A program made the position numbers and the translations under genes. A model generated the notes under the pieces. The model was given only the letters and a program-made list of their open reading frames with translations, had not been told where the DNA came from and ran no database searches. A stretch of DNA of 64,000 nucleotides from an uncultured Alphaproteobacteria bacterium. GTDB taxonomy: Bacteria; Pseudomonadota; Alphaproteobacteria; Sphingomonadales; Sphingomonadaceae. Where the stretch lies: positions 91,284-155,283 of the forward strand of contig CAVTPG010000001.1 of the NCBI GenBank assembly GCA_963736595.1, read 5' to 3'. Positions 14,319-25,782 of the stretch are shown here, in pieces. Position 1 is the stretch's first letter; the number at the start of each line of letters is the position of its first letter.

Positions 14319-16917
14319 GTGCCGAAATTTCTGCCGCAATCTTTGAAACAGCGGGCCGACGAGTTGCGGCCGTTCGTGATTGCGGTGCTGGTGGCGGTCA
14401 TTTTTACGTATCTCAGCGGTACGGCTGTGTTTCGTATCGCCGATGGCTTGATGTTCGATGCTGCATCCACGCGCGCTGCTCCGCAAACCCCGAGAGTGCT
14501 ACTAATCGAACAGGACGCAGCCTTTGAGAGCATGGGCGGTGCGAAATACGATCGCTTGGTCCAAAGCGCAGCGAGAGCCGGGATCACACGCATTGGATTT
14601 GCGCAGGCTCCGCGTGACTGGGTGGGCAGCGACGACAACAAGCCCGCCATACCTGTTGTGGTCGGGATGCCAGCTCAGCGGAAACTAGGGGGCGATGTCT
14701 GGTCGCTCGATCCTGAACTGCGCACTCGCCTACCCAAAGCGGTGCAGCCGGCAGCAAGTGTGATCGCAGCATCCGATTACGGCATCTATCGGCGTCAAAT
14801 TACGGCTTTATCGACTGAGGATCGATTAATACCGACATTCGAAGCCGCGTTGTCTGGACGCGCCGTCGAAAGTCGATCATTTTTATGTCCAGATGTCCCG
14901 CGATCAAAGCATCCCGCGAGCGAACGCCTCACAGATGATTGCTGGAGATTTCAGACAAGGAAGTTTTGCAGGGATGGTGGCAGTCGTCGAACCCTCCAAG
15001 CAGCTACGGGAGCGCCGCTTTACCACGCCATTGACACCGCTAAGCCAAACCACCAGCGCCAGTGTATTTCGTGCCAATATGGTTCAGAACTTCCTTGATG
15101 GTAGGGCTGCACATAGTCTCGCGGCGTGGCAAAACTTCCTGCTTGTCATGGTTAGCGCCATGATCGCGGTGCTGGCTTTGCGATCGGTCGATGCCAAGCG
15201 GGTTGTGCTGTTCGTCATAGGCATCGGTGCGATATTGGTCATGGGGGCCGGATGGCTCGCTCTGACCATTATCAGCGCAGTTTTGCCCGTCTCGGCAATG
15301 CTGGGCGCGCTTTTGGTATCCGCCGCCACAATGGTTCTGTTGCGGGAGCATTCGCAGGATGACCGCCTGAAATCCGTCCTGGAGCGGGCAATCGGCTTCT
15401 CTTATTCGCGGTCGATACTAAACGAGCAAGCGCACCTGTCGCATTTCGTAACTGCTGCCGCTCGCAATTTGGCAATTGATAACAGCGCCGTGTTTCAATT
15501 TCGCGGTGATGGAGAGCCGCTTTACAAAGAAAACTTCGGATTTACGCCGCATGAAATGCCGGATGAAAAAACCCTTCGATTACTTTCCAAGCGCACAAAA
15601 CGAACCGGAACGGTGATCGATGTCAGCAATAAGATCTCGTCAAGAACCGAAACGAGCCACTATATAACGCGGCTTGATAATGCCGATGTGCCAACGTTCT
15701 GGTTCTTTTCAGTCAACGAAAGCGGAGATCCGGCGGCGCTTAAGCGCATCACCGATCAGGCGCAGGATATCGCCAAAACTTACGCGCGGTTTTATCGCTG
15801 GCGCGCTGATTTGTCCGCCAGCGACAGCCATGCGCGCCGGTTTCAGCCGATTGATCGGCAGATCGCCAGCGCCGCGTCGCTGATTTCCACGCAATCGGAG
15901 CAAATGCGCGAGGGGATCGAACACCTTAATACTGCGGTTGCAATTTATCACGTGGGCGGCTTTCCGGTTCATGCCAATGCGGCGATGCAAAATCTGTATG
16001 GCGATGCGGAATTGAACCTTGCGCGGGCGTCGCTGAGCGAGGCCTTGCTTACGCTGACCACATTGGAAGAAGAAGCCGTGCAGCTCCTGATCCATGACTT
16101 AATCGTTTCCGGCAGAGAAGTGCGCGTACCTGCCCGAGAATTTACTGCCAAACAGCGCATTTTGCGCATCGCAACACATCGCGATGAGACGCCTGACAAG
16201 GGTTGGCTGAACCTCATTATACTGGAAGCGCTCGACATTTCAGAGTTAAATAAGCTGGCCAATTTGCGCCATGCGGTCGGAAATTTCGTCGATAAGCAGC
16301 TTCGCAATGATTTGGAGGCGCTGGAATTCGGGGCCGATGTCGCCTTGTCGCACGCGGCAGAGATGCCTGGCCTAACCAAAGTGTTGAACCGGATACGCGA
16401 CGTTTCGCAGCGGGCGACCGGACGCCTGGATCAGGTTGCAAGTCTGCTTGACGATGCCAGCGGCACGAATCTTGAAGTTTGCTATCCAATTGACGCGCGT
16501 AAGGTGGTCGAGGATGCGTTTGAGCGCGTGCGGAATAAGGCAGAGGATTTCGAAGTCGATGTGGCGCTCGACCTGCCGGGAATCAGCGGCTTTACGATGG
16601 CCGAACCGCAGGTTTTGCTCGAAACGATAGAAGCCATGATGAACGTCGTTATTGCGGACACGCCACATGGTGGGTCGATGCGAGTATCATTGCATGAAGA
16701 GCGCGACAGTTCGCGGCTCGAAGTAACGGGCGGCATCGGCATTCCGTTCGAGCGGCTGATTGCGGCTTTCGATGCCGGGCAAAGTGAAGTTCCGGACGAG
16801 TTTCACGCCATTTCCATCGGTATCGCCAACGCGATCACATGGAAGGGGCAAGTCAGTTATTGGAGTTCCGTCGGCAAGGGCTATCGGTTCGTTATAAAAT
16901 TGCGGCGGGTTGGATGA
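14319..16917 (+). CDS. CHASE2-like membrane sensor with degenerate histidine-kinase core, +1 frameshift at T5 run 14880-14884
   Basis: N-terminal TM, periplasmic region (DGLMFD..PRVLLIEQD), three further TMs, PAS-like segment (VHANAAM), H-box-like VDKQLRNDL, C-terminal SSVGKGYRFVIKL; ~865 aa after removing one T. Confidence 0.7.
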
Positions 16918-17300
16918 TGGCGGCGCGAATACTGATTGTGGACGACGACGATCTGCTGTGCGAGATGTTGCAGGCGATGCTGGAAATGCACGGCTATGCC
17001 GTTGCAATTGCTGCCGATGGCGAGGCAGGCCTGAAATTGCTGGCTGAACAAGCGATCGATCTGGTCATTCTGGATCTCGTCATGCCCCGCATGGATGGAT
17101 TGCGTTTTTTGCGGGAGCTGCCCGACAGGATTGCCAATCCGCCGCCGATATTGATGGCTTCAGCTTCGGCAACCCCACAAATGCAGGCGCTTCACACCAA
17201 TTCGGGAGTGGCCGGAATCATCCGCAAGCCGGTGAAGTCGCAGATTTTGCTGGAAACCATCGAAACGGTGCTAGCCAAGCGGAATTCAATCGGCGCATAA
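16914..17300 (+). CDS. single-domain (CheY-like) response regulator
   Basis: ILIVDDD, LDLVMPRMDG, SA, KP; ATGA overlap with upstream stop. Confidence 0.93.
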   Translation: MMAARILIVDDDDLLCEMLQAMLEMHGYAVAIAADGEAGLKLLAEQAIDLVILDLVMPRMDGLRFLRELPDRIANPPPILMASASATPQMQALHTNSGVAGIIRKPVKSQILLETIETVLAKRNSIGA

Positions 17301-17313
17301 AGCACGCGCCACT

Positions 17314-19893
17314 ATGACTATTCCATTATTTCCCGAAGGCGGCCTTGCCAGCTCGGTCATCACGACCGTGTGGGTTGGCGTGTTCGTGCTGTGCTTCTTC
17401 AATTTGCGTTTCGGATGGGTTTTATCAGGGCTGGTCGTGCCGGGATACCTCGTGCCGCTGCTGATCATAAAGCCGCTGGCAGCGGGAATTATCGTCGTCG
17501 AAGCGGTGCTGACTTTCCTGCTCGTCTGGGTGTTTTCGGAAAAGATCGGCAAGGGCCGCTGGCCCGCTTTATTCGGGCGCGACCGGTTTATGGGGCTGAT
17601 TTTGGCTAGCATCGCGGTGCGGTTGACGCTGGACGGGTTCGCCTTGCCGGTGCTGGCTGACTGGCTGGCCGAAAACTGGAATCAGGAGCTTGACTGGCGC
17701 AGCGATTTGCAAAGTTTTGGACTGGTGATTGTGTCGCTGCTGGCCAACCAGTTTTGGAAGCCGGGGCTTACGCGCGGATTGTTCGCGATGATTGTCACGG
17801 TCGGGCTGACACTGTTAATCGTGCGGTACGGATTGATGGAATTCACCAATTTCAGGATCAGCGGCGTGTCCTACTTGTATGAGGGGCTGGCCAGTTCGAT
17901 CCTCGCCAGCCCCAAAGCCTATATGATTTTGGTGCTGACTGCGATGTATGCCAGTCATATGAATGTTAAATACGGGTGGGATTTTTCGGGCATCCTGATC
18001 CCGGCTTTGATCGCGCTGCAATGGTATCAGCCGACCAAAATCCTGACATCTTTTATCGAAGCCGGCATCATCTATTTGATTGCGATTGCCGTCCTGAAAC
18101 TGCCGATTTTCGCCAATAGGACGATGGAGGGAGGCCGCAAACTGCTGCTCTTTTTCAACATCAGTTTTGCTTACAAGCTGATCCTAGGGCATCTGCTGGT
18201 TCTGTTTGCGGTCGAGGTGAAAACAACGGACCTGTATGGGTTCGGATATTTGCTGGCGACGCTGATTGCAATCAAGGCGCATGATAAGCAGATATTCCCG
18301 CGCTTGATGCGAACGACATTGCAGGTTTCACTGGTGGGAGCAGTCGCGGGAAACCTTTTTGGTTTGTTTTTATCAACCGTTCTGCCAGTTGCAGGGGCCA
18401 ATCTGGCAAATGCGCGCATCACGGAAACCCCTTCCAGCGTGAGTGCCGAAAAGCAGTTGGCAGCTTCTGCGATCGGCAATGCCTATCTACAGCGGTGGCA
18501 GGGTGGAGCCGCGCCTATCAGCCGTCAGTCAGCCGATACGTTAACCGATCTGGTGCGATTACTGGAAGCTGGGTTGCCGCCAGTCGAGGCTAATGCGCGG
18601 GCCAGCGCAAGCGGATGGCAAGTCGTGACGTTACCGGGAAATGTCATTGCGATCATGCGTTCGGATGGGTTGGGCGGCGACTTACTGCTGCATTATCCAT
18701 CGAGCCGTGGAGCGATCGCAATCAACGCACCACGTCCGGCAAGCGCGCCTGGAACCGCGATGGCGGCCTTTGCTTTGCGCGTAAATCAGGATGCCCGTTG
18801 GCTGGTTTTAAGCGCGCCCATTCAACCCGAAGCGATCGGTCAACCCTCGGTACTGGCAGCATTCCGTTCAGGCAGCAGCTTGCCGGAATTGGATATCATA
18901 GCCGCGACGAACAGTAACTTTGCGATAGCGCAGCCCATAGTCGAGGTTGCTGGGCGGTCTGCAGCGGACATCGATATTCAAGCGCTGCGTGCGGCGATCC
19001 CGTCGCTTCAAGTGCGTTTCTCGCCTAGCGACACGACCGAAAATACGCGCGGCGATGGCGCTGTTATTCGCTTGCCCAAAGCCGATATTGCGCGATTGGC
19101 ATCCAGTCTGTCGCCCACTAGTCCGCAAAGCGCAGGCCGCTGTACCGTCAGTGCCCTCGCACCGGGCGCACAGCCGATTAAGGACATGGCCGATCTGGCA
19201 TTCCTTCGCGGAGAAGTGGCCGAGCCGGTCTTGTCCGCCATATCAGGCGAGCCGATTCCGGAGACATCGCGGATTGCGGCGCAATGGTTGGGGCTTGGCC
19301 TGAATGACTGTATCGATGATGATGGAGCGCCGCTGTGGCATCTGGCCTCGGATTTGCGGAGCGCCGGGCATTATTTCTTCGCACCCGGCCTTGCAACCGG
19401 GCGGATCGTCCACGGCTTTGCCGACGCGCAGACCGAAGGCGATGATGCCTCGCAATTCGACCGGAATGCCGTCCGCACAGCACGCGATTTCCGGCGAAAC
19501 TGGGGTGCCGGGATCGCAATGATCGCGCCAACCCAACAGGATTACGGCGGCTCGCAAATGACGGCATTCGGCGTCATCAATCAAAGCGCCATTCGCGCGC
19601 TTGGCAATCGCCCCGGTGCAATCGTCCAGCTTCGGACCCCGCCAAGCGCCGCCGATCTGAAGATTGCGCAAGGCTCTGCTTATGTCCTGTCCGGGCGGAT
19701 CCAGCGGAGCGATACTCTTGCCGACGAGGTCGAAGCGGCTTTGCGGAGCGGGGGCTACGATGTGTCGCGAATTGCGCGGCAGCAAGGGACCGCCGGGATC
19801 GAAGCGCCGCCGGAAAATTCGCTGCGCTATGTGTCGCAATCACGCAACAAACGCTATGCCGTTGTCCTGATCCCCGCAGAGCAAGCGCCATGA
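17314..19893 (+). CDS. PgsC/CapC-family polytopic membrane protein (two CapC repeats) with large C-terminal extracytoplasmic domain
   Basis: SGLVVPGYL..LFGRDRF..SFGLVIVSLLANQFWKPGL resembles B. subtilis PgsC (AGLVVPGYL..LYGRRKF..GIGIIVPGLIANTIQKQGL); second repeat SGILIPALI..EGGRKL..GFGYLLATLIA. Confidence 0.85.
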   Translation: MTIPLFPEGGLASSVITTVWVGVFVLCFFNLRFGWVLSGLVVPGYLVPLLIIKPLAAGIIVVEAVLTFLLVWVFSEKIGKGRWPALFGRDRFMGLILASIAVRLTLDGFALPVLADWLAENWNQELDWRSDLQSFGLVIVSLLANQFWKPGLTRGLFAMIVTVGLTLLIVRYGLMEFTNFRISGVSYLYEGLASSILASPKAYMILVLTAMYASHMNVKYGWDFSGILIPALIALQWYQPTKILTSFIEAGIIYLIAIAVLKLPIFANRTMEGGRKLLLFFNISFAYKLILGHLLVLFAVEVKTTDLYGFGYLLATLIAIKAHDKQIFPRLMRTTLQVSLVGAVAGNLFGLFLSTVLPVAGANLANARITETPSSVSAEKQLAASAIGNAYLQRWQGGAAPISRQSADTLTDLVRLLEAGLPPVEANARASASGWQVVTLPGNVIAIMRSDGLGGDLLLHYPSSRGAIAINAPRPASAPGTAMAAFALRVNQDARWLVLSAPIQPEAIGQPSVLAAFRSGSSLPELDIIAATNSNFAIAQPIVEVAGRSAADIDIQALRAAIPSLQVRFSPSDTTENTRGDGAVIRLPKADIARLASSLSPTSPQSAGRCTVSALAPGAQPIKDMADLAFLRGEVAEPVLSAISGEPIPETSRIAAQWLGLGLNDCIDDDGAPLWHLASDLRSAGHYFFAPGLATGRIVHGFADAQTEGDDASQFDRNAVRTARDFRRNWGAGIAMIAPTQQDYGGSQMTAFGVINQSAIRALGNRPGAIVQLRTPPSAADLKIAQGSAYVLSGRIQRSDTLADEVEAALRSGGYDVSRIARQQGTAGIEAPPENSLRYVSQSRNKRYAVVLIPAEQAP

Positions 19894-20693
19894 GCCTGAC
19901 CGCAATCCTGCGCCTGCTCGCCGTGGGGGCAATCATTCTGGCTGTGGGTGTTGGAAGCTGGATGACGTCGCCACGCATCGCGGAACTGCTGGGCGCTTCG
20001 GAAGAAGGCGCACGCGACCGGGTGGCTTTAAGCGACCGCACCCTGGTATATCGGTTGAAAGATGCCCGCACCACGCGCTTCGTTTTCTCGCAGCCCAGCA
20101 CCATTGCACGGGTTTTATCGACGCCCGCGATTGCCGAGGCCGTCTGGGATGACGGCACACGCTGGAGCTATGGCTACCGCGTCACCTTGCGCGACAGCGG
20201 CGATAATATGGTCGCGTCCCACGATATTTATTCCAGCGCCGCCAATCCGGCAAACCTAGAAGAACCGCTGAATATCGTTCGGTTCACACGCGGCGGAACG
20301 GGCGGCATCGGCACGCAGGATCAGGCCGTAATTGCCTCGGACACACCATTTGTTGCGATGGATATTGGCCCATTGCCCTCAGATAAAGGCGTCGACGCAG
20401 TGTATGTCCGCGCTTACGAACGTCGCCCATTTCTAGGCGGTGCGGCGGCGCTGGCGGCCTATCGCAGACGCAGCGATGACGAACGCGAAGTGCTGACCCG
20501 CGCAAATGCCTTCCCCGAGCGCTTTATCAGCAATGCGGAACGACAAAACAGCGTCATCAACCAGTGGCGACCGCTTGGCCCGTCCGGTATATCGGGCCGC
20601 GACTATGACGTGCTGGTCATGTATAAAGGCACGCTCGACAGCGAGGCGGAAGACGGCGACGATGGAGATGGCGACGATGGAGAGGGTGGCTGA
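19890..20693 (+). CDS. hypothetical membrane-anchored/exported protein with acidic tail
   Basis: N-terminal hydrophobic helix; start/stop overlaps on both sides; tail DSEAEDGDDGDGDDGEGG. Confidence 0.8.
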   Translation: MSLTAILRLLAVGAIILAVGVGSWMTSPRIAELLGASEEGARDRVALSDRTLVYRLKDARTTRFVFSQPSTIARVLSTPAIAEAVWDDGTRWSYGYRVTLRDSGDNMVASHDIYSSAANPANLEEPLNIVRFTRGGTGGIGTQDQAVIASDTPFVAMDIGPLPSDKGVDAVYVRAYERRPFLGGAAALAAYRRRSDDEREVLTRANAFPERFISNAERQNSVINQWRPLGPSGISGRDYDVLVMYKGTLDSEAEDGDDGDGDDGEGG

Positions 20694-21553
20694 TGGCGCG
20701 GCGCAAATGGCTGCTCCTTTTGGGGATCGTGATTGTGGCGTTTAGTGCAGCCATGCTGGCAGGCCTGTTCCCGCCGCTGCGTTCCAGCAACGGGTTCGAG
20801 CGACCGGGCGCAGTGGACTTGTCGCGCGCAGAGGCGATGTTTGCCGCTGGGCTTGGCGCTCCCAAATCAAGCGAATGGCGTGAGGCGGCGAGCGATCTTG
20901 GCTGGCAAGCACGCGATGCAGAAGGATTTGCGCAACTCGTCGAACCATCTGGGAATTGCCAGGGGCGCGGCGTGTACCTCATCGGTTTGTCGCCTGATGC
21001 TGCGCCAACCGCCATGACTGCCCCCCATCGCGGGGCCGACAAGCATACTGGAACACTGGCGGCCATGTTCGCAGAGGAAGGCAAGTTGGCTGCTGCAGCG
21101 TGGAATTCCGCGCCTCGCCGAAAATCCGCAGAGTGCGATGCTTTTGGCGATCTGGCAAAGGCGGAGGAGCATTTTTTCACGGCCTTTGCCCTAAGTTTTG
21201 CGCAAGCCTACCCGCAAGGCCGCGTCGTGCAATTGCACGGTTTCGATCGCGACAATCGCCAAAGTCTTGCGGGAAGCGAGGCCGACATCATTATCAGTGA
21301 CGGGACCGATCAGCCGGGCGACCGCTTGCTGGCCTTGTCGGAATGCCTGACGATCTCGCTGCAGGCGTGGAACGTGCGCGTTTATCCGCTCGATGCGCCG
21401 GAACTGGGCGCGCTTAAAAATGCACAAGGCGCCGCGTTGCGAGAGCAGGGTTTTGAGGGATTTACCCATATTGAAATGAGTTTGAACTTGCGTCTCGCCT
21501 TACGCAAAGACACGGGATTACGCGCACAATTCCTCAACTGTTTCAAAGCATGA
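20693..21553 (+). CDS. membrane-anchored putative zinc hydrolase, PghP (poly-gamma-glutamate hydrolase)/N-formylglutamate amidohydrolase-like
   Basis: Ordered motifs TAPHRGAD, VQLHGF, THIEMS..LR; N-terminal TM. Confidence 0.6.
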   Translation: MARRKWLLLLGIVIVAFSAAMLAGLFPPLRSSNGFERPGAVDLSRAEAMFAAGLGAPKSSEWREAASDLGWQARDAEGFAQLVEPSGNCQGRGVYLIGLSPDAAPTAMTAPHRGADKHTGTLAAMFAEEGKLAAAAWNSAPRRKSAECDAFGDLAKAEEHFFTAFALSFAQAYPQGRVVQLHGFDRDNRQSLAGSEADIIISDGTDQPGDRLLALSECLTISLQAWNVRVYPLDAPELGALKNAQGAALREQGFEGFTHIEMSLNLRLALRKDTGLRAQFLNCFKA

Positions 21554-24500
21554 GCAATCAGGCCATGCTGCTGGCCACGCCGTGCCGTATCAATGCGGCG
21601 CTGGAAGTCGGCTTGCCTGAAATGCTGTGCGGCACTTACGCCGATATTCACGAATCGATTGCGCATTTTGCCGCGCAGACGGGCGATCACGACGCGGTCG
21701 GAAATTTCACCGATCATGCCAAGACGCTGATTGCTTTCGTTAAGCACCGCTTAGGTCATATCGGTGATCTGCATGATGCCGCCGCGCTGTTCAATGCGCG
21801 CTTTGCCAATGCTCTGGACCGCGCAGCAGAGCGGGCCGCAATTATGGATTTCGCCGAACGGCTGGGCGCTGACGCTGCGCAACTTGAGCGCGACAGGAAG
21901 GCATTCGACAGGTTCTTCGACGGCGATGCCGTGAGCGAACGATATCGGCGGCGCGTCGGAGAAGCCGAGCGCGAATTGGCTCACACAGTGGAGCGGCTGG
22001 GCCTGGTCGCCGGTGAGGCGTTGCGTGTCGGTGAAATGGCCGGTGATGACGAGTTGTTGAGCAAAGCAATTGCCGGCGTGCTGACGGATGCGCGAAGTTA
22101 TCGCGGGGATGCGCGCGTCAAACAAGCGGGGTTCCGCGCGTTGCACCATATTGGCACAGGCGCGCTCGAACCGCTAACCGGCTTTTGGATCGACATTGCC
22201 ATTCGCGACACTCGGCGGCTGGCGCTGGACACGAGCGAAGACACCTGGGCGCAATGCGATGCGTTTGCCACCTTGCTCACGATGGCGCCCGGCTCGCTCG
22301 AACCCGTGTTGGAGCGGCGATTAGGCAAGTCCAGTCTGGAAGGCCCTCCCTTGCGGCAGGAGAACCGGATGTTCGTGCGGCGCTATCTGGCCGATCTGCT
22401 GTGCGAGGCCGTGCCGGATCACCCGAAGCTGTCGAAATATCTCAGCCGGATCGCCAATGATCGCAACGGCGCGGTTCGGCAGGCGCTGGCCAAGGCGCTG
22501 GTCAAATTGCCGCGTGACGAGGCAAAACCGCTCGTGTCGCGATTGCGAATCGATCAGGATCCGCAAGTCCGCGCGATGCTGTTCGCGCAGCCGCAAGCGA
22601 TGGCGCAAACGATCGGCGGCGCCATGTATCGCTCGCATATCATCCGGGTTCTGTCGCGCGATGAGGACACTCATGTTTTGCGGATGGCGATGGATGCGGC
22701 GGTTAAGCTGGTCGCGTGGCAAGGTGGGCATGAGCCAGCCCAACAGGCCGAAAGTGTTACGCAATTGCGACAGGCGCTTAGTGTGTTGCGGGCGCGCAGC
22801 ACGGCGGCCAATAGGCGGCGCTGGGCAGGCGAAGCGATGGAGCGGATCTGGCTTTATTCAGACGCCGATGCGCTGGATATGGCGGAATATATCCGTTTTC
22901 AAATGGCAGCCACTGCCGAGGGGCAGCGTCGCAAATTGCCCGAGCTAGCCGATGTGGCCAAATCTGATCCGCATTTCATCGGACGCATTATGGCCGTTCT
23001 GGCGCAGGATGGGTTTGGGCTGGAGTTAATTGCCGGATCGGTGCCGCGAATGCAAAAAGGGGAGCGATTTGCACGTCGGTTGTGGCGCATTCTGTTCGAG
23101 TTGCGCGTCTCCTCGACCGACAAACGACAGGCCTTCCTGCACACGATCGGGCGCAGCTTGCCCGGAACGATCTCTGCCCCGGCCGCGCATATGGCCGAAC
23201 TGGCTCCGACCAAGGTTCCGGGTGAGCCGCTGCATTTTGCCGATGAGGGCGGGTGGCGCAATTATCTGCCGCTGGTCGATCATGCGCTGGCAGCGATCGA
23301 TCGAGGCAAGACAACGCGCATTTTCACCAGTGAAGGCGTGACGTCGCTGACCGCTCCATCAGGCGTGCTCGCGCGCATTACCGCCTATTGGCAGGTCAGT
23401 CGCAACTTCGCTCGGCTTGCGGCATTGCGCAATCAGGGCGGCAGTTCAGACTATGTCGACGCGTTGCGCCAATATGGCCTGTCGGTCGAATTCCAGGCGC
23501 ACGACGCATATGAAGCGCCGCTTTTAACACCGCAAAAGCAAACTGCGCTTAAGTTCGATCAGCCACAAACCGCCAGCGATCCCGAAGTGGTCAGATTATT
23601 CGATCTTGGCGGCGTGCTAATCGCCGTGCCGGTGCTGCTAAAAAGCGCAGCAGCATACTTTGCCACGGTTTTTGCCAACACGCTGGGCCAGCTTGCTTTG
23701 TTTCTGCTGCTTGCAGGAGGATGGTTCGTCGGACGCCACCTGTATCTTGGCTACAAGGCGCGCCGCTATCGCAATGCAATCCCTCTGTCGCTGGGTGGCT
23801 GGGGAACGCGCGGTAAATCCGGGACCGAGCGGCTGAAGGCGGGGTTGATCAATGCTTTGGGCCACCCGCTGGTGTCGAAAACGACAGGTTGCGAAGCGAT
23901 GTTCCTGCGCGGCGAGCCATTTGGCGGCCTCACCGAAATGTTTCTGTTTCGCCCGTATGACAAGGCGACGATCTGGGAGCAGTTTAATCTGATCCGCATT
24001 TCCGTCGGGCTAAAGGCGCGCGTATTTTTGTGGGAATGCATGGGCCTTAACCCGTCCTATGTGCGGGTGCTGCAACGCGACTGGATGCGCGATAATATCG
24101 GTACCATTACAAATACTTACCCTGACCATGAAGACGTGCAGGGTCCGGCAGGGCGCAACATCCCTGAAGTAATGCGCGAGTTCATTCCGGAAAACTCCGT
24201 GCTGCTGACAACCGAAGAAGAGATGCTGCCGATCCTGCGCGAAGGCGCGGCGCAGGCCAATACGCGAATGCGCGCGATCGATTGGCGCGAGGCGGGTCTG
24301 GTGCATGAAAATCTACTCGCGCGGTTTCCCTATGCCGAGCATCCCTATAATATCGCGCTGGTGGCGGCGATGGGGGATGAGCTGGGTCTGGGCGAGGATT
24401 TCTGCATCAGAGAAATGTCCGATCGCGTGGTGGCAGATTTGGGCGTGCTAAAAATCTATCCGCAAGCCAATGTCGATGGGCGCATTCTGGAATTCGTGAT

Positions 24501-25782
24501 GGGGATGAGCGCGAATGAGCGGTTCGGCGCAATGGGAAATTGGGACCGGATGGGCTTTGCCGACCATGATCTTGGCGAAGATCCGGCAATTTACGTCAGC
24601 ACCGTGGTCAATAATCGCGCCGACCGGGTGCCGCGATCGCAGGTCTTTGCGCGCCTGTTGGTGAATGACATATCAGCGGACAAGCATTTCCTGATCGGAT
24701 CGAATATCGATGGACTGATCGGATTTATCGAGGAAGAATGGGAGGCTTATGCAGCGCGCCTGAGCCTGGAAAGCGATACAGACGACACACCTGCCGAAAT
24801 TTTTGAGCGCCTGGCGCGCCAGCAACGTGTGCCGCTGAACCAAGAGCAAATAGAGCGGCGATTGATGGCGATGCTGACAGCAATTGCCGATAATGAGCGG
24901 GCAAATACGCTGGTCCGCGCTGCGCGTGAAGGCCAACTCGCTGCATCTTTTACCGATGATGAGCGCGCACTGGGTGAGCAGATCTCCGAAGAACACGCGG
25001 AAATGGTTAAATCGCTAGAGGAGTATCAAGCGCTATCTAGCGTAATATCGAAAGGTGGCGCGGCGGAACATTTGGCGCGCGTTCGTGCATTCCTGCACGC
25101 TGCTTTCATGCGCAAACTGGTTCCGGTTCGCGATGTTCACATGTCGGGTGAGAATATCGTGCGGCTGATCGCGCATCATTCACCGCCGGGCCTGACAAAT
25201 CGCATTATGGGGATGCAGAATATCAAAGGGACGGGCCTGGATTTTGTCTATCGCTGGCAAGCGTGGGAGCAAGTGCATCGAGCGTGCGCGCAGGCGCGTG
25301 ATGCGGATCCAATGGTTGCGGAAAAGGGCTTGTCTGCGCTGGCCGGCTTTCAGGAATATGGCATTTTAAGCGGAAGCGAGGTTCGCCGCACAATCGCCGA
25401 ATTGCAAATCCGCGACGAACTGCCCGTATCGTTCACGCCCGCGCAGCTTGATGCGATTATTGCGCGCGTCGATACGCAGCTTGGCGAACTGGACGCGGCG
25501 GCGCGAATGGACGGCGAGGAGGCAGGCAGCGCAAGCATCCCATCACGGTTTGCTGGCAGGGTGGTCGAAATCGTGGAAGCCTTTGTCGATGCGGGCGATG
25601 CCGTGCGCCGCCGCCGGCAAGCCGATGCGATTTATAAAGCCATGATTGCCGAGCAGATCAGCAGCCAGCGCGCCGCGCTGGAATTGAAAAAACTGACGAT
25701 GCGGCAAAAGGGTGGCTGGCTGGCCGAATCAATCACCCAAGGGCAAGGCCGATTTGCGAGCCTGTTCCGGCGCTCTGCCTAA
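21550..25782 (+). CDS. HEAT-repeat + PgsB/CapB poly-gamma-glutamate synthase-like amide ligase fusion (1410 aa)
   Basis: GTRGKS..RL, KTTG, EQ, ECMGLNP.Y, TN..PDH.DVQGP, MSANE, NNRADRV.RS, GMQNIKG match PgsB motifs in order; HEAT-like repeats DRNGAVRQALAKAL, DQDPQVRAML. Confidence 0.88.
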   Translation: MSNQAMLLATPCRINAALEVGLPEMLCGTYADIHESIAHFAAQTGDHDAVGNFTDHAKTLIAFVKHRLGHIGDLHDAAALFNARFANALDRAAERAAIMDFAERLGADAAQLERDRKAFDRFFDGDAVSERYRRRVGEAERELAHTVERLGLVAGEALRVGEMAGDDELLSKAIAGVLTDARSYRGDARVKQAGFRALHHIGTGALEPLTGFWIDIAIRDTRRLALDTSEDTWAQCDAFATLLTMAPGSLEPVLERRLGKSSLEGPPLRQENRMFVRRYLADLLCEAVPDHPKLSKYLSRIANDRNGAVRQALAKALVKLPRDEAKPLVSRLRIDQDPQVRAMLFAQPQAMAQTIGGAMYRSHIIRVLSRDEDTHVLRMAMDAAVKLVAWQGGHEPAQQAESVTQLRQALSVLRARSTAANRRRWAGEAMERIWLYSDADALDMAEYIRFQMAATAEGQRRKLPELADVAKSDPHFIGRIMAVLAQDGFGLELIAGSVPRMQKGERFARRLWRILFELRVSSTDKRQAFLHTIGRSLPGTISAPAAHMAELAPTKVPGEPLHFADEGGWRNYLPLVDHALAAIDRGKTTRIFTSEGVTSLTAPSGVLARITAYWQVSRNFARLAALRNQGGSSDYVDALRQYGLSVEFQAHDAYEAPLLTPQKQTALKFDQPQTASDPEVVRLFDLGGVLIAVPVLLKSAAAYFATVFANTLGQLALFLLLAGGWFVGRHLYLGYKARRYRNAIPLSLGGWGTRGKSGTERLKAGLINALGHPLVSKTTGCEAMFLRGEPFGGLTEMFLFRPYDKATIWEQFNLIRISVGLKARVFLWECMGLNPSYVRVLQRDWMRDNIGTITNTYPDHEDVQGPAGRNIPEVMREFIPENSVLLTTEEEMLPILREGAAQANTRMRAIDWREAGLVHENLLARFPYAEHPYNIALVAAMGDELGLGEDFCIREMSDRVVADLGVLKIYPQANVDGRILEFVMGMSANERFGAMGNWDRMGFADHDLGEDPAIYVSTVVNNRADRVPRSQVFARLLVNDISADKHFLIGSNIDGLIGFIEEEWEAYAARLSLESDTDDTPAEIFERLARQQRVPLNQEQIERRLMAMLTAIADNERANTLVRAAREGQLAASFTDDERALGEQISEEHAEMVKSLEEYQALSSVISKGGAAEHLARVRAFLHAAFMRKLVPVRDVHMSGENIVRLIAHHSPPGLTNRIMGMQNIKGTGLDFVYRWQAWEQVHRACAQARDADPMVAEKGLSALAGFQEYGILSGSEVRRTIAELQIRDELPVSFTPAQLDAIIARVDTQLGELDAAARMDGEEAGSASIPSRFAGRVVEIVEAFVDAGDAVRRRRQADAIYKAMIAEQISSQRAALELKKLTMRQKGGWLAESITQGQGRFASLFRRSA

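Follow-up and report, generated by a model that had tools for sequence, protein, structure and literature searches.

Poly-gamma-glutamate synthesis is understood in outline, and for single-membrane Bacillus only. In the PgsBCA(E) and CapBCADE systems of these bacteria, PgsC/CapC is a single PF14102 unit of about 150 residues, lacking a soluble domain and encoded in an operon with a PgsB-type ligase, and the third synthase subunit, PgsA/CapA (PF09587), is a membrane-attached, extracytoplasmic part of the synthase. Zinc-dependent endo-hydrolases of poly-gamma-glutamate are represented by PghP of phage PhiNIT1 and PghL/YndL of B. subtilis (MEROPS M86; PDB 3a9l, 21dc and 5onj). Neither a long form of CapC/PgsC nor a solved PgsBCA structure was found in the literature searched. 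Here we describe such a long form, encoded in a 64,000-nucleotide stretch of DNA from an uncultured alphaproteobacterium of the Sphingomonadaceae (assembly GCA_963736595.1, contig CAVTPG010000001.1, positions 91,284–155,283; referred to here as the window). The 859-residue protein shares with its Bacillus counterpart the PF14102 unit and an operon with a PgsB-type ligase, but the unit is doubled and is followed by a tail of about 490 residues, predicted to be periplasmic, which comprises two copies of a zinc-hydrolase fold without the catalytic residues of PghP and PghL.

The gene (17314..19893, + strand; open reading frame list and translation) matches PF14102 in two stretches within its first ~360 residues (E 9.6e-38), with a score of 129.7 bits against a Pfam cut-off of 27. 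Against TIGR04011 of NCBIfam the score is 58.5, below the equivalog cut-off of 96.45; the protein therefore contains a CapC-family domain and is not a Bacillus-type equivalog. Residues 1–360 (17314..18393, +) make up the membrane module of two CapC units, and the remaining ~490 residues match no NCBIfam family and, PF14102 apart, no Pfam family at E ≤ 0.1. A search with an alignment of the whole protein returned over 1,250 proteins with E ≤ 1e-10; the homologues of the fusion are, by their database names, from Erythrobacteraceae, and the 120 matches listed are 814–989 residues long and all carry PF14102. Pfam and NCBIfam both lack a model of the tail domain, so 'PgsC/CapC' is the only label on more than a thousand database proteins.

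Two hydrolase-like domains in the CapC tail

A first-pass annotation, made by reading the translated window, had proposed that nucleotides 18400–19893 (residues ~363–859, the entire tail past the last membrane helix) encode two dead copies of the fold of a 286-residue hydrolase encoded nearby, with limits of about 390–600 and 620–859. Profile comparison and structure prediction confirm the observation of two hydrolase-like copies, with almost exactly these limits. Referred to here as D1 and D2, the domains span residues 378–600 (18445..19113, +) and 625–852 (19186..19869, +), D1 being the more degenerate copy of the inactivated zinc-peptidase fold and D2 resembling PghP and the N-formylglutamate amidohydrolases.

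Direct comparison of the 859- and 286-residue proteins by BLASTP gave nothing significant (best E of 9.8), which is why the alignment made by eye is barely visible in the window's own sequence. Searches with the tail alone were shallow (5 proteins in a word-seeded search and 19 in a full phmmer search over 1.8 billion representatives) because rapid divergence of the tail defeats searching with a single sequence. Depth was obtained by searching with an alignment of the whole protein; homologues of both proteins were collected and their profiles compared. The comparison of hidden Markov models that the annotation had suggested as a check was thus run, and its scores stand above both kinds of control. 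D2 (residues 613–859) matched the hydrolase family in hhalign at 68–86% (P 5e-6 to 5e-5) over 164–171 columns, and D1 matched D2 at 70–79% (P 2–4e-5). Between D1 and the hydrolase family the match was only 7–14% (P 0.002–0.006), yet collinear. The corresponding scores are 40.0 for D2 and 26.5 for D1 against the hydrolase family, and 38.6 for D1 against D2. Reversed profiles scored 13–19, and block-shuffled hydrolase profiles (up to 25 shuffles, with possibly fewer valid replicates) reached at most 27.2 with D2 and 17.0 with D1. At the level of sequence profiles, the resemblance of the tail to the hydrolase is more than chance.

Both segment pairs on which the original alignment rested were recovered by the profile–profile alignment. 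In the first, G454..APR474..T481 of D1 lies over G91..APH112..T119 of the 286-residue protein; in the second, GAIVQLR774T of D2 lies over GRVVQLH182G, and AYVLSG over DIIISDG. The literal pairing of TAF with TAF did not survive, being three residues off the hhalign register.

The strongest sequence evidence comes from other families of the phylum, where genes with a doubled CapC encode proteins of 1079–1108 residues. Their D1 and D2 are recognizable as copies of each other by plain BLASTP (5e-16, 1e-14 and 2e-13; 35–38% identity over ~100 residues), and in one of three relatives D1 also matches its own neighbouring hydrolase (1.25e-4), the other two giving no significant match. In hhalign, the distant domains match the hydrolase family at 94.7% (D1, P 5.6e-8) and 91.5% (D2, P 8.8e-7), one another at 99.1% (P 6.2e-19), and their counterparts in the window at 90.6% (D1, P 1.3e-6) and 99.6% (D2, P 2.1e-23). 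As the distant relatives bridge the window's domains to the hydrolase family, the homology is unambiguous. Each of three distant loci with full context encodes a homologue of the 286-residue hydrolase (294–317 residues; E 1e-67 to 1e-79) two genes downstream of the CapC fusion. Both domains of the distant proteins have Q-x-R where the hydrolase has Q-L-H. Fusion, duplication and inactivation are old, since they are already present in other families of the phylum.

The distant fusions (L036:6624-9884 (-), L037:6945-10190 (-), L038:3467-6793 (+) and L039:3487-6726 (+)) have a third, C-terminal domain of ~140 residues after D2. One member of the window's family keeps it (P0136, residues 840–989; BLASTP 1e-10 to 1e-14); the window protein and most of the listed relatives (814–896 residues) are apparently too short to contain it.

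Predicted fold of the tail

The AlphaFold2 model of the tail (predicted local distance difference test (pLDDT) of 91.5, predicted template modelling score (pTM) of 0.93) consists of two alpha/beta domains, at tail residues 9–228 and 256–483, equivalent to residues 378–597 and 625–852 of the protein. Common to D1, D2 and the model of the 286-residue protein is the order of elements: helix, helix, four strands, helix, strand, helix, strand, (helix), strand, helix, strand, (helix), strand. Of the two helices in brackets, the second occurs in the 286-residue protein and in D2 and is missing from D1.

An unbiased structure search of 48,161 PDB representatives, independent of Foldseek, returned only proteins of the zinc-exopeptidase fold among its top 50. 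The best neighbours of D2 are 2odf and 2q7s, the same two and in the same order as for the 286-residue protein, followed by PghL and PghP. On the evidence of these models, the tail domains share the fold of the 286-residue protein. Matches to M17 aminopeptidases, given by Foldseek for the whole two-domain tail, have a root mean square deviation of ~22 Å, which is not meaningful for the whole chain and is read as a pointer to fold class only. The ESM Atlas gave no usable match.

The intact 286-residue paralogue

The 286-residue protein (20693..21553, +), which the first-pass annotation had called a hydrolase, is membrane-anchored. Neither it nor the 859-residue protein matches the PF05908 profile (Pfam, E ≤ 0.1); it has no Pfam family at that threshold and no NCBIfam family. 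Sequence searches of the PDB, by phmmer with the 859- and 286-residue proteins and by hmmsearch with the profile of the 286-residue family, gave no meaningful match.

Invariant in 106 homologues are H112, D116, N138, R142, D153, Q180, H182, H259, E261, R267 and two cysteines. The AlphaFold2 model (pLDDT of 93.4) has as best PDB neighbours 2odf and 2q7s, of the N-formylglutamate-amidohydrolase type, and then PghL and PghP. In PghL, zinc is bound by H41, E46 and H102, E165 is catalytic and R171 holds the substrate carboxylate (PMC6506827). The candidate catalytic set of the 286-residue protein is H112, D116, H182, E261 and R267, with aspartate in place of the first glutamate; the six-residue spacing from glutamate to arginine is equal in the two proteins. 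These conserved residues, together with the predicted fold, make the protein a credible membrane-anchored zinc hydrolase of the PghP/N-formylglutamate-amidohydrolase clade, and it is probably active. It differs from PghP and PghL in having H-x3-D rather than H-x4-E, an additional N-terminal unit of two helices and a hairpin, and the membrane anchor. The N-formylglutamate amidohydrolases (2q7s; Atu2144, 2odf) are cytoplasmic small-molecule enzymes, and they have no sequence-level match to the window's proteins.

Loss of catalytic residues

Neither tail domain retains the residues that are invariant in the 286-residue family (H112, D116, H182, H259, E261 and R267). In D1, H112 corresponds to R474 (18733..18735, +; hhalign residue map, codon checked), D116 to A478, and H182 has no counterpart. 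In D2, H112 corresponds to A703, itself variable, D116 to the variable position 716, and H182 to R774, which is arginine in 95% of the family; in each of the two models the residue stands where the corresponding strand ends. Acidic residues are missing in both domains from the strand that corresponds to H259-x-E261, and no column of the 119 aligned tails exceeds 50% histidine. The zinc ligands of PghP and PghL (His, Glu and His) and the catalytic Glu165 (PMC6506827) are likewise absent from both domains. As the invariant residues are missing, the tail domains are homologues and not functional members of the 286-residue family, and, as judged from their sequences, both are inactive as zinc hydrolases.

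That the copies are dead was thus borne out, as metal ligands and catalytic glutamate are missing from both. Of the replacement of histidine by arginine claimed for both copies, R474 in D1 and R774 in D2 are real, and R774 is 95% conserved, but the position of R474 is mostly aspartate across the family (90%). E830 (in the motif AGIE) was considered as a counterpart of the catalytic E261 and was ruled out, as both the secondary-structure map and greedy hhalign align it with the E237-L238-G239 loop. The best-conserved residues of D2 within the family are Q772, R774, G828 and E830 (92–95%), which lie on or beside hydrolase-invariant positions (Q180, H182 and L238-G239); Q772-L-R774 (19627..19635, +), the equivalent of Q180-L-H182, is placed by the hhalign map and by both models.

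The only conserved cysteines of the tail are C610, in the linker between D1 and D2 (19141..19143, +), and C666 (19309–19311), at 97% each by column counts over the 119 tails. They are conserved in the Erythrobacteraceae tails and not in the distant fusions; a possible disulfide between them, specific to this lineage, would fasten the linker to the first D2 strand.

Membrane module and location of the tail

The hydropathy profile of the CapC module indicates ~12 membrane helices. In a topology drawn by hand from this profile, with both ends placed outside the cytoplasm, each of three loops rich in lysine and arginine (75–94, 262–277 and 321–334) follows an odd-numbered helix. Summed over 12 homologues, lysine plus arginine amounts to 15.9 in the proposed cytoplasmic loops versus 5.0 in the proposed periplasmic loops. 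By the positive-inside rule this asymmetry supports a periplasmic location for both termini and the tail, in line with the earlier annotation. The N-terminal membrane anchors of the 286-residue protein and of a neighbouring 267-residue protein agree with their being on the same side as the tail.

The question of CapA

It had also been suggested that the tail domains replace CapA. Like PgsA, the tail would be a membrane-attached portion of the synthase outside the cytoplasm. Its fold and sequence are unrelated to PgsA/CapA, and PF09587 has no match in the tail, in the cluster or elsewhere in this genome, which is 89% complete. A PF09587 protein is, however, encoded far from the cluster in six of eight other cluster-bearing genomes of the family sample, a small and mutually related set (42 of 201 in the whole sample). 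The presence of these genes elsewhere in related genomes rules out 'CapA is absent' as a general statement and weakens the proposed replacement, which we do not endorse.

Five of the six PF09587 proteins have a form of ~690–720 residues, with PF09587 at residues 134–386 and ~300 further C-terminal residues (L040:604-2658 (-), with equivalents in L041–L044, all outside the window). In two single-contig genomes the gene lies 1–1.5 Mb from the cluster. This protein may serve the cluster in trans as a partner of the CapA type, or its presence may be a lineage effect.

Gene neighbourhood

Six co-directional genes run from a histidine-kinase-like gene to the ligase, and the four from CapC onwards overlap start-to-stop. 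Directly after the CapC fusion comes the 267-residue membrane-anchored protein (19890..20693, +), translationally coupled on both sides, which has no Pfam or NCBIfam family and ends in an acidic Gly/Asp tail. Its homology to the 824–1150-residue proteins encoded at the same position in the distant clusters is confined to their first ~245 residues (BLASTP 2e-8 to 2e-9), and by this comparison the subunit is strongly shortened in the window's family. Following the 286-residue hydrolase is a PgsB-type ligase fusion of 1410 residues (21550..25782, +), with TIGR04012 at residues 738–1074 (E 9.9e-54, below the equivalog cut-off); the CapC fusion is thus encoded together with a PgsB/CapB-type ligase.

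Upstream are a degenerate histidine-kinase-like protein of 674 residues (14893–16917, +), with a weak HATPase_c match below the cut-off (E 0.0014), and a response regulator (16839–17300, +). Because the open reading frame of the former runs 79 bases into that of the latter, translation of the regulator probably begins further downstream, at M26 or M27.

Discussion

What is new here is a pseudo-enzyme module of a known fold on a known synthase subunit. The homology and fold of the tail domains, their loss of catalytic residues, the age of the fusion and its co-occurrence with a live paralogue are observed; binding and guiding of polymer by the tail is what we infer from them. In the mechanism that we propose, the 859-residue protein would be the inner-membrane conduit subunit of a Gram-negative synthase of a polyglutamate-type polymer, with a doubled CapC/PgsC module whose last membrane helix runs into the periplasmic tail. 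The tail would derive from a zinc hydrolase of the PghP/N-formylglutamate-amidohydrolase type, a paralogue of the 286-residue enzyme, that was fused to CapC and duplicated in tandem, with zinc ligands and catalytic glutamate subsequently lost from both copies. The dead domains would retain the substrate cleft of the parent, with arginine in place of a metal ligand, and this cleft, positioned over the channel exit, would grip the emerging anionic chain uncut on its way to an outer-membrane barrel, while the intact paralogue trims or releases it. We favour this non-cutting clamp because the best-conserved residues of D2 sit at hydrolase-invariant positions, with arginine at the former zinc site; as a complete mechanism, clamp and trimming paralogue together, its chances are about even.

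Three observations weigh against the clamp. The tail is not basic, with lysine plus arginine against aspartate plus glutamate standing at 18 to 18 in D1 and 22 to 26 in D2. Its sequence also changes at two to three times the rate of the CapC module (identity of 21–60% versus 58–94% in the same proteins). Finally, D1 of the window's family lacks Q-x-R and P-x-x-E, which the distant relatives keep in both domains, so at least one cleft is weakly constrained. A wider version of the proposal makes the tandem tail the periplasmic device for handling the chain in a whole class of diderm polyglutamate-type secretion machines: a former cutting enzyme, with arginine in its zinc site, would lead the chain from a doubled CapC channel to an arginine-lined outer-membrane barrel and set where the live paralogue cuts. 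We offer this version tentatively, as less likely than not.

A fast-evolving, non-basic surface suits protein contacts as well as polymer binding, and the dead domains could instead serve to dock or regulate the live 286-residue hydrolase or the 267-residue protein, pairing with the active paralogue to tether it at the channel exit or to switch it on and off, and binding no polymer. The live paralogue is always encoded near the fusion (in the window and in three distant clusters), pairs of enzyme and pseudo-enzyme paralogues commonly form heteromers, and the high pTM of the model shows that D1 and D2 are already packed together as a pseudo-dimer. There is precedent for dead paralogues working beside live envelope enzymes in the degenerate LytM factors EnvC and NlpD, EnvC activating periplasmic amidases, and in inactive M14 carboxypeptidase-like domains. 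The CapC tail resembles the EnvC/NlpD type in that an enzyme fold has lost its metal ligands and an intact paralogue is encoded adjacent; it differs in fold and system, and in having a tandem of dead copies joined to the membrane subunit of a polymer synthase. Docking is nevertheless rather unlikely, as Q772 and R774, among the most conserved residues of D2, lie at former active-site positions and not on an obvious new surface, and the 286-residue protein has its own membrane anchor and hence needs no tether.

Low conservation of the tail sequence and the loss of the D1 motifs would also fit a structural role, either as a rigid two-domain stalk reaching toward the outer-membrane barrel or as a wall anchor binding the gamma-D-Glu stem peptides of peptidoglycan, with no specific role for the cleft in handling polymer. 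The peptidoglycan-peptide enzymes Csd4 and MpaA are among the structural matches, and the third domain of ~140 residues has mostly been lost in the window's family, so the periplasmic part is modular. For a mere spacer, however, conservation of Q772, R774, G828 and E830 at 92–95% and of Q-x-R in both distant domains is unexpected, and several families of the phylum have kept two folded copies; such a role is improbable. That one or both domains are still catalytic without metal, for example in polymer transfer or processing like CapD anchoring, is highly improbable: despite conserved polar residues in D2 (R632, E634, Q757, R761, Q772, R774, D794, E830, Y839 and R847), the residues required in PghP and PghL (two histidines, one acid and the catalytic glutamate; PMC6506827) are gone at the mapped positions, no cysteine or serine nucleophile is conserved there, and an intact paralogue is present for hydrolysis.

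The finding bears on how the chain leaves PgsC, on the role of PgsA and on polymer export in two-membrane bacteria. A recognizable substrate-binding fold, derived from a polyglutamate-type hydrolase, appears to be attached to the membrane subunit right where the polymer would exit, which predicts the site at which the chain would emerge. R774, Q772 and E830 are targets for mutation, and the soluble 490-residue fragment would be expected to bind the product and could help to identify the polymer. The tail is also a clear example from nature of an enzyme co-opted as a non-catalytic module beside its live paralogue. If the wider version of the clamp holds, the tail would control chain length, and it would offer the first way into the mechanism by which an anionic polyamide crosses the periplasm.

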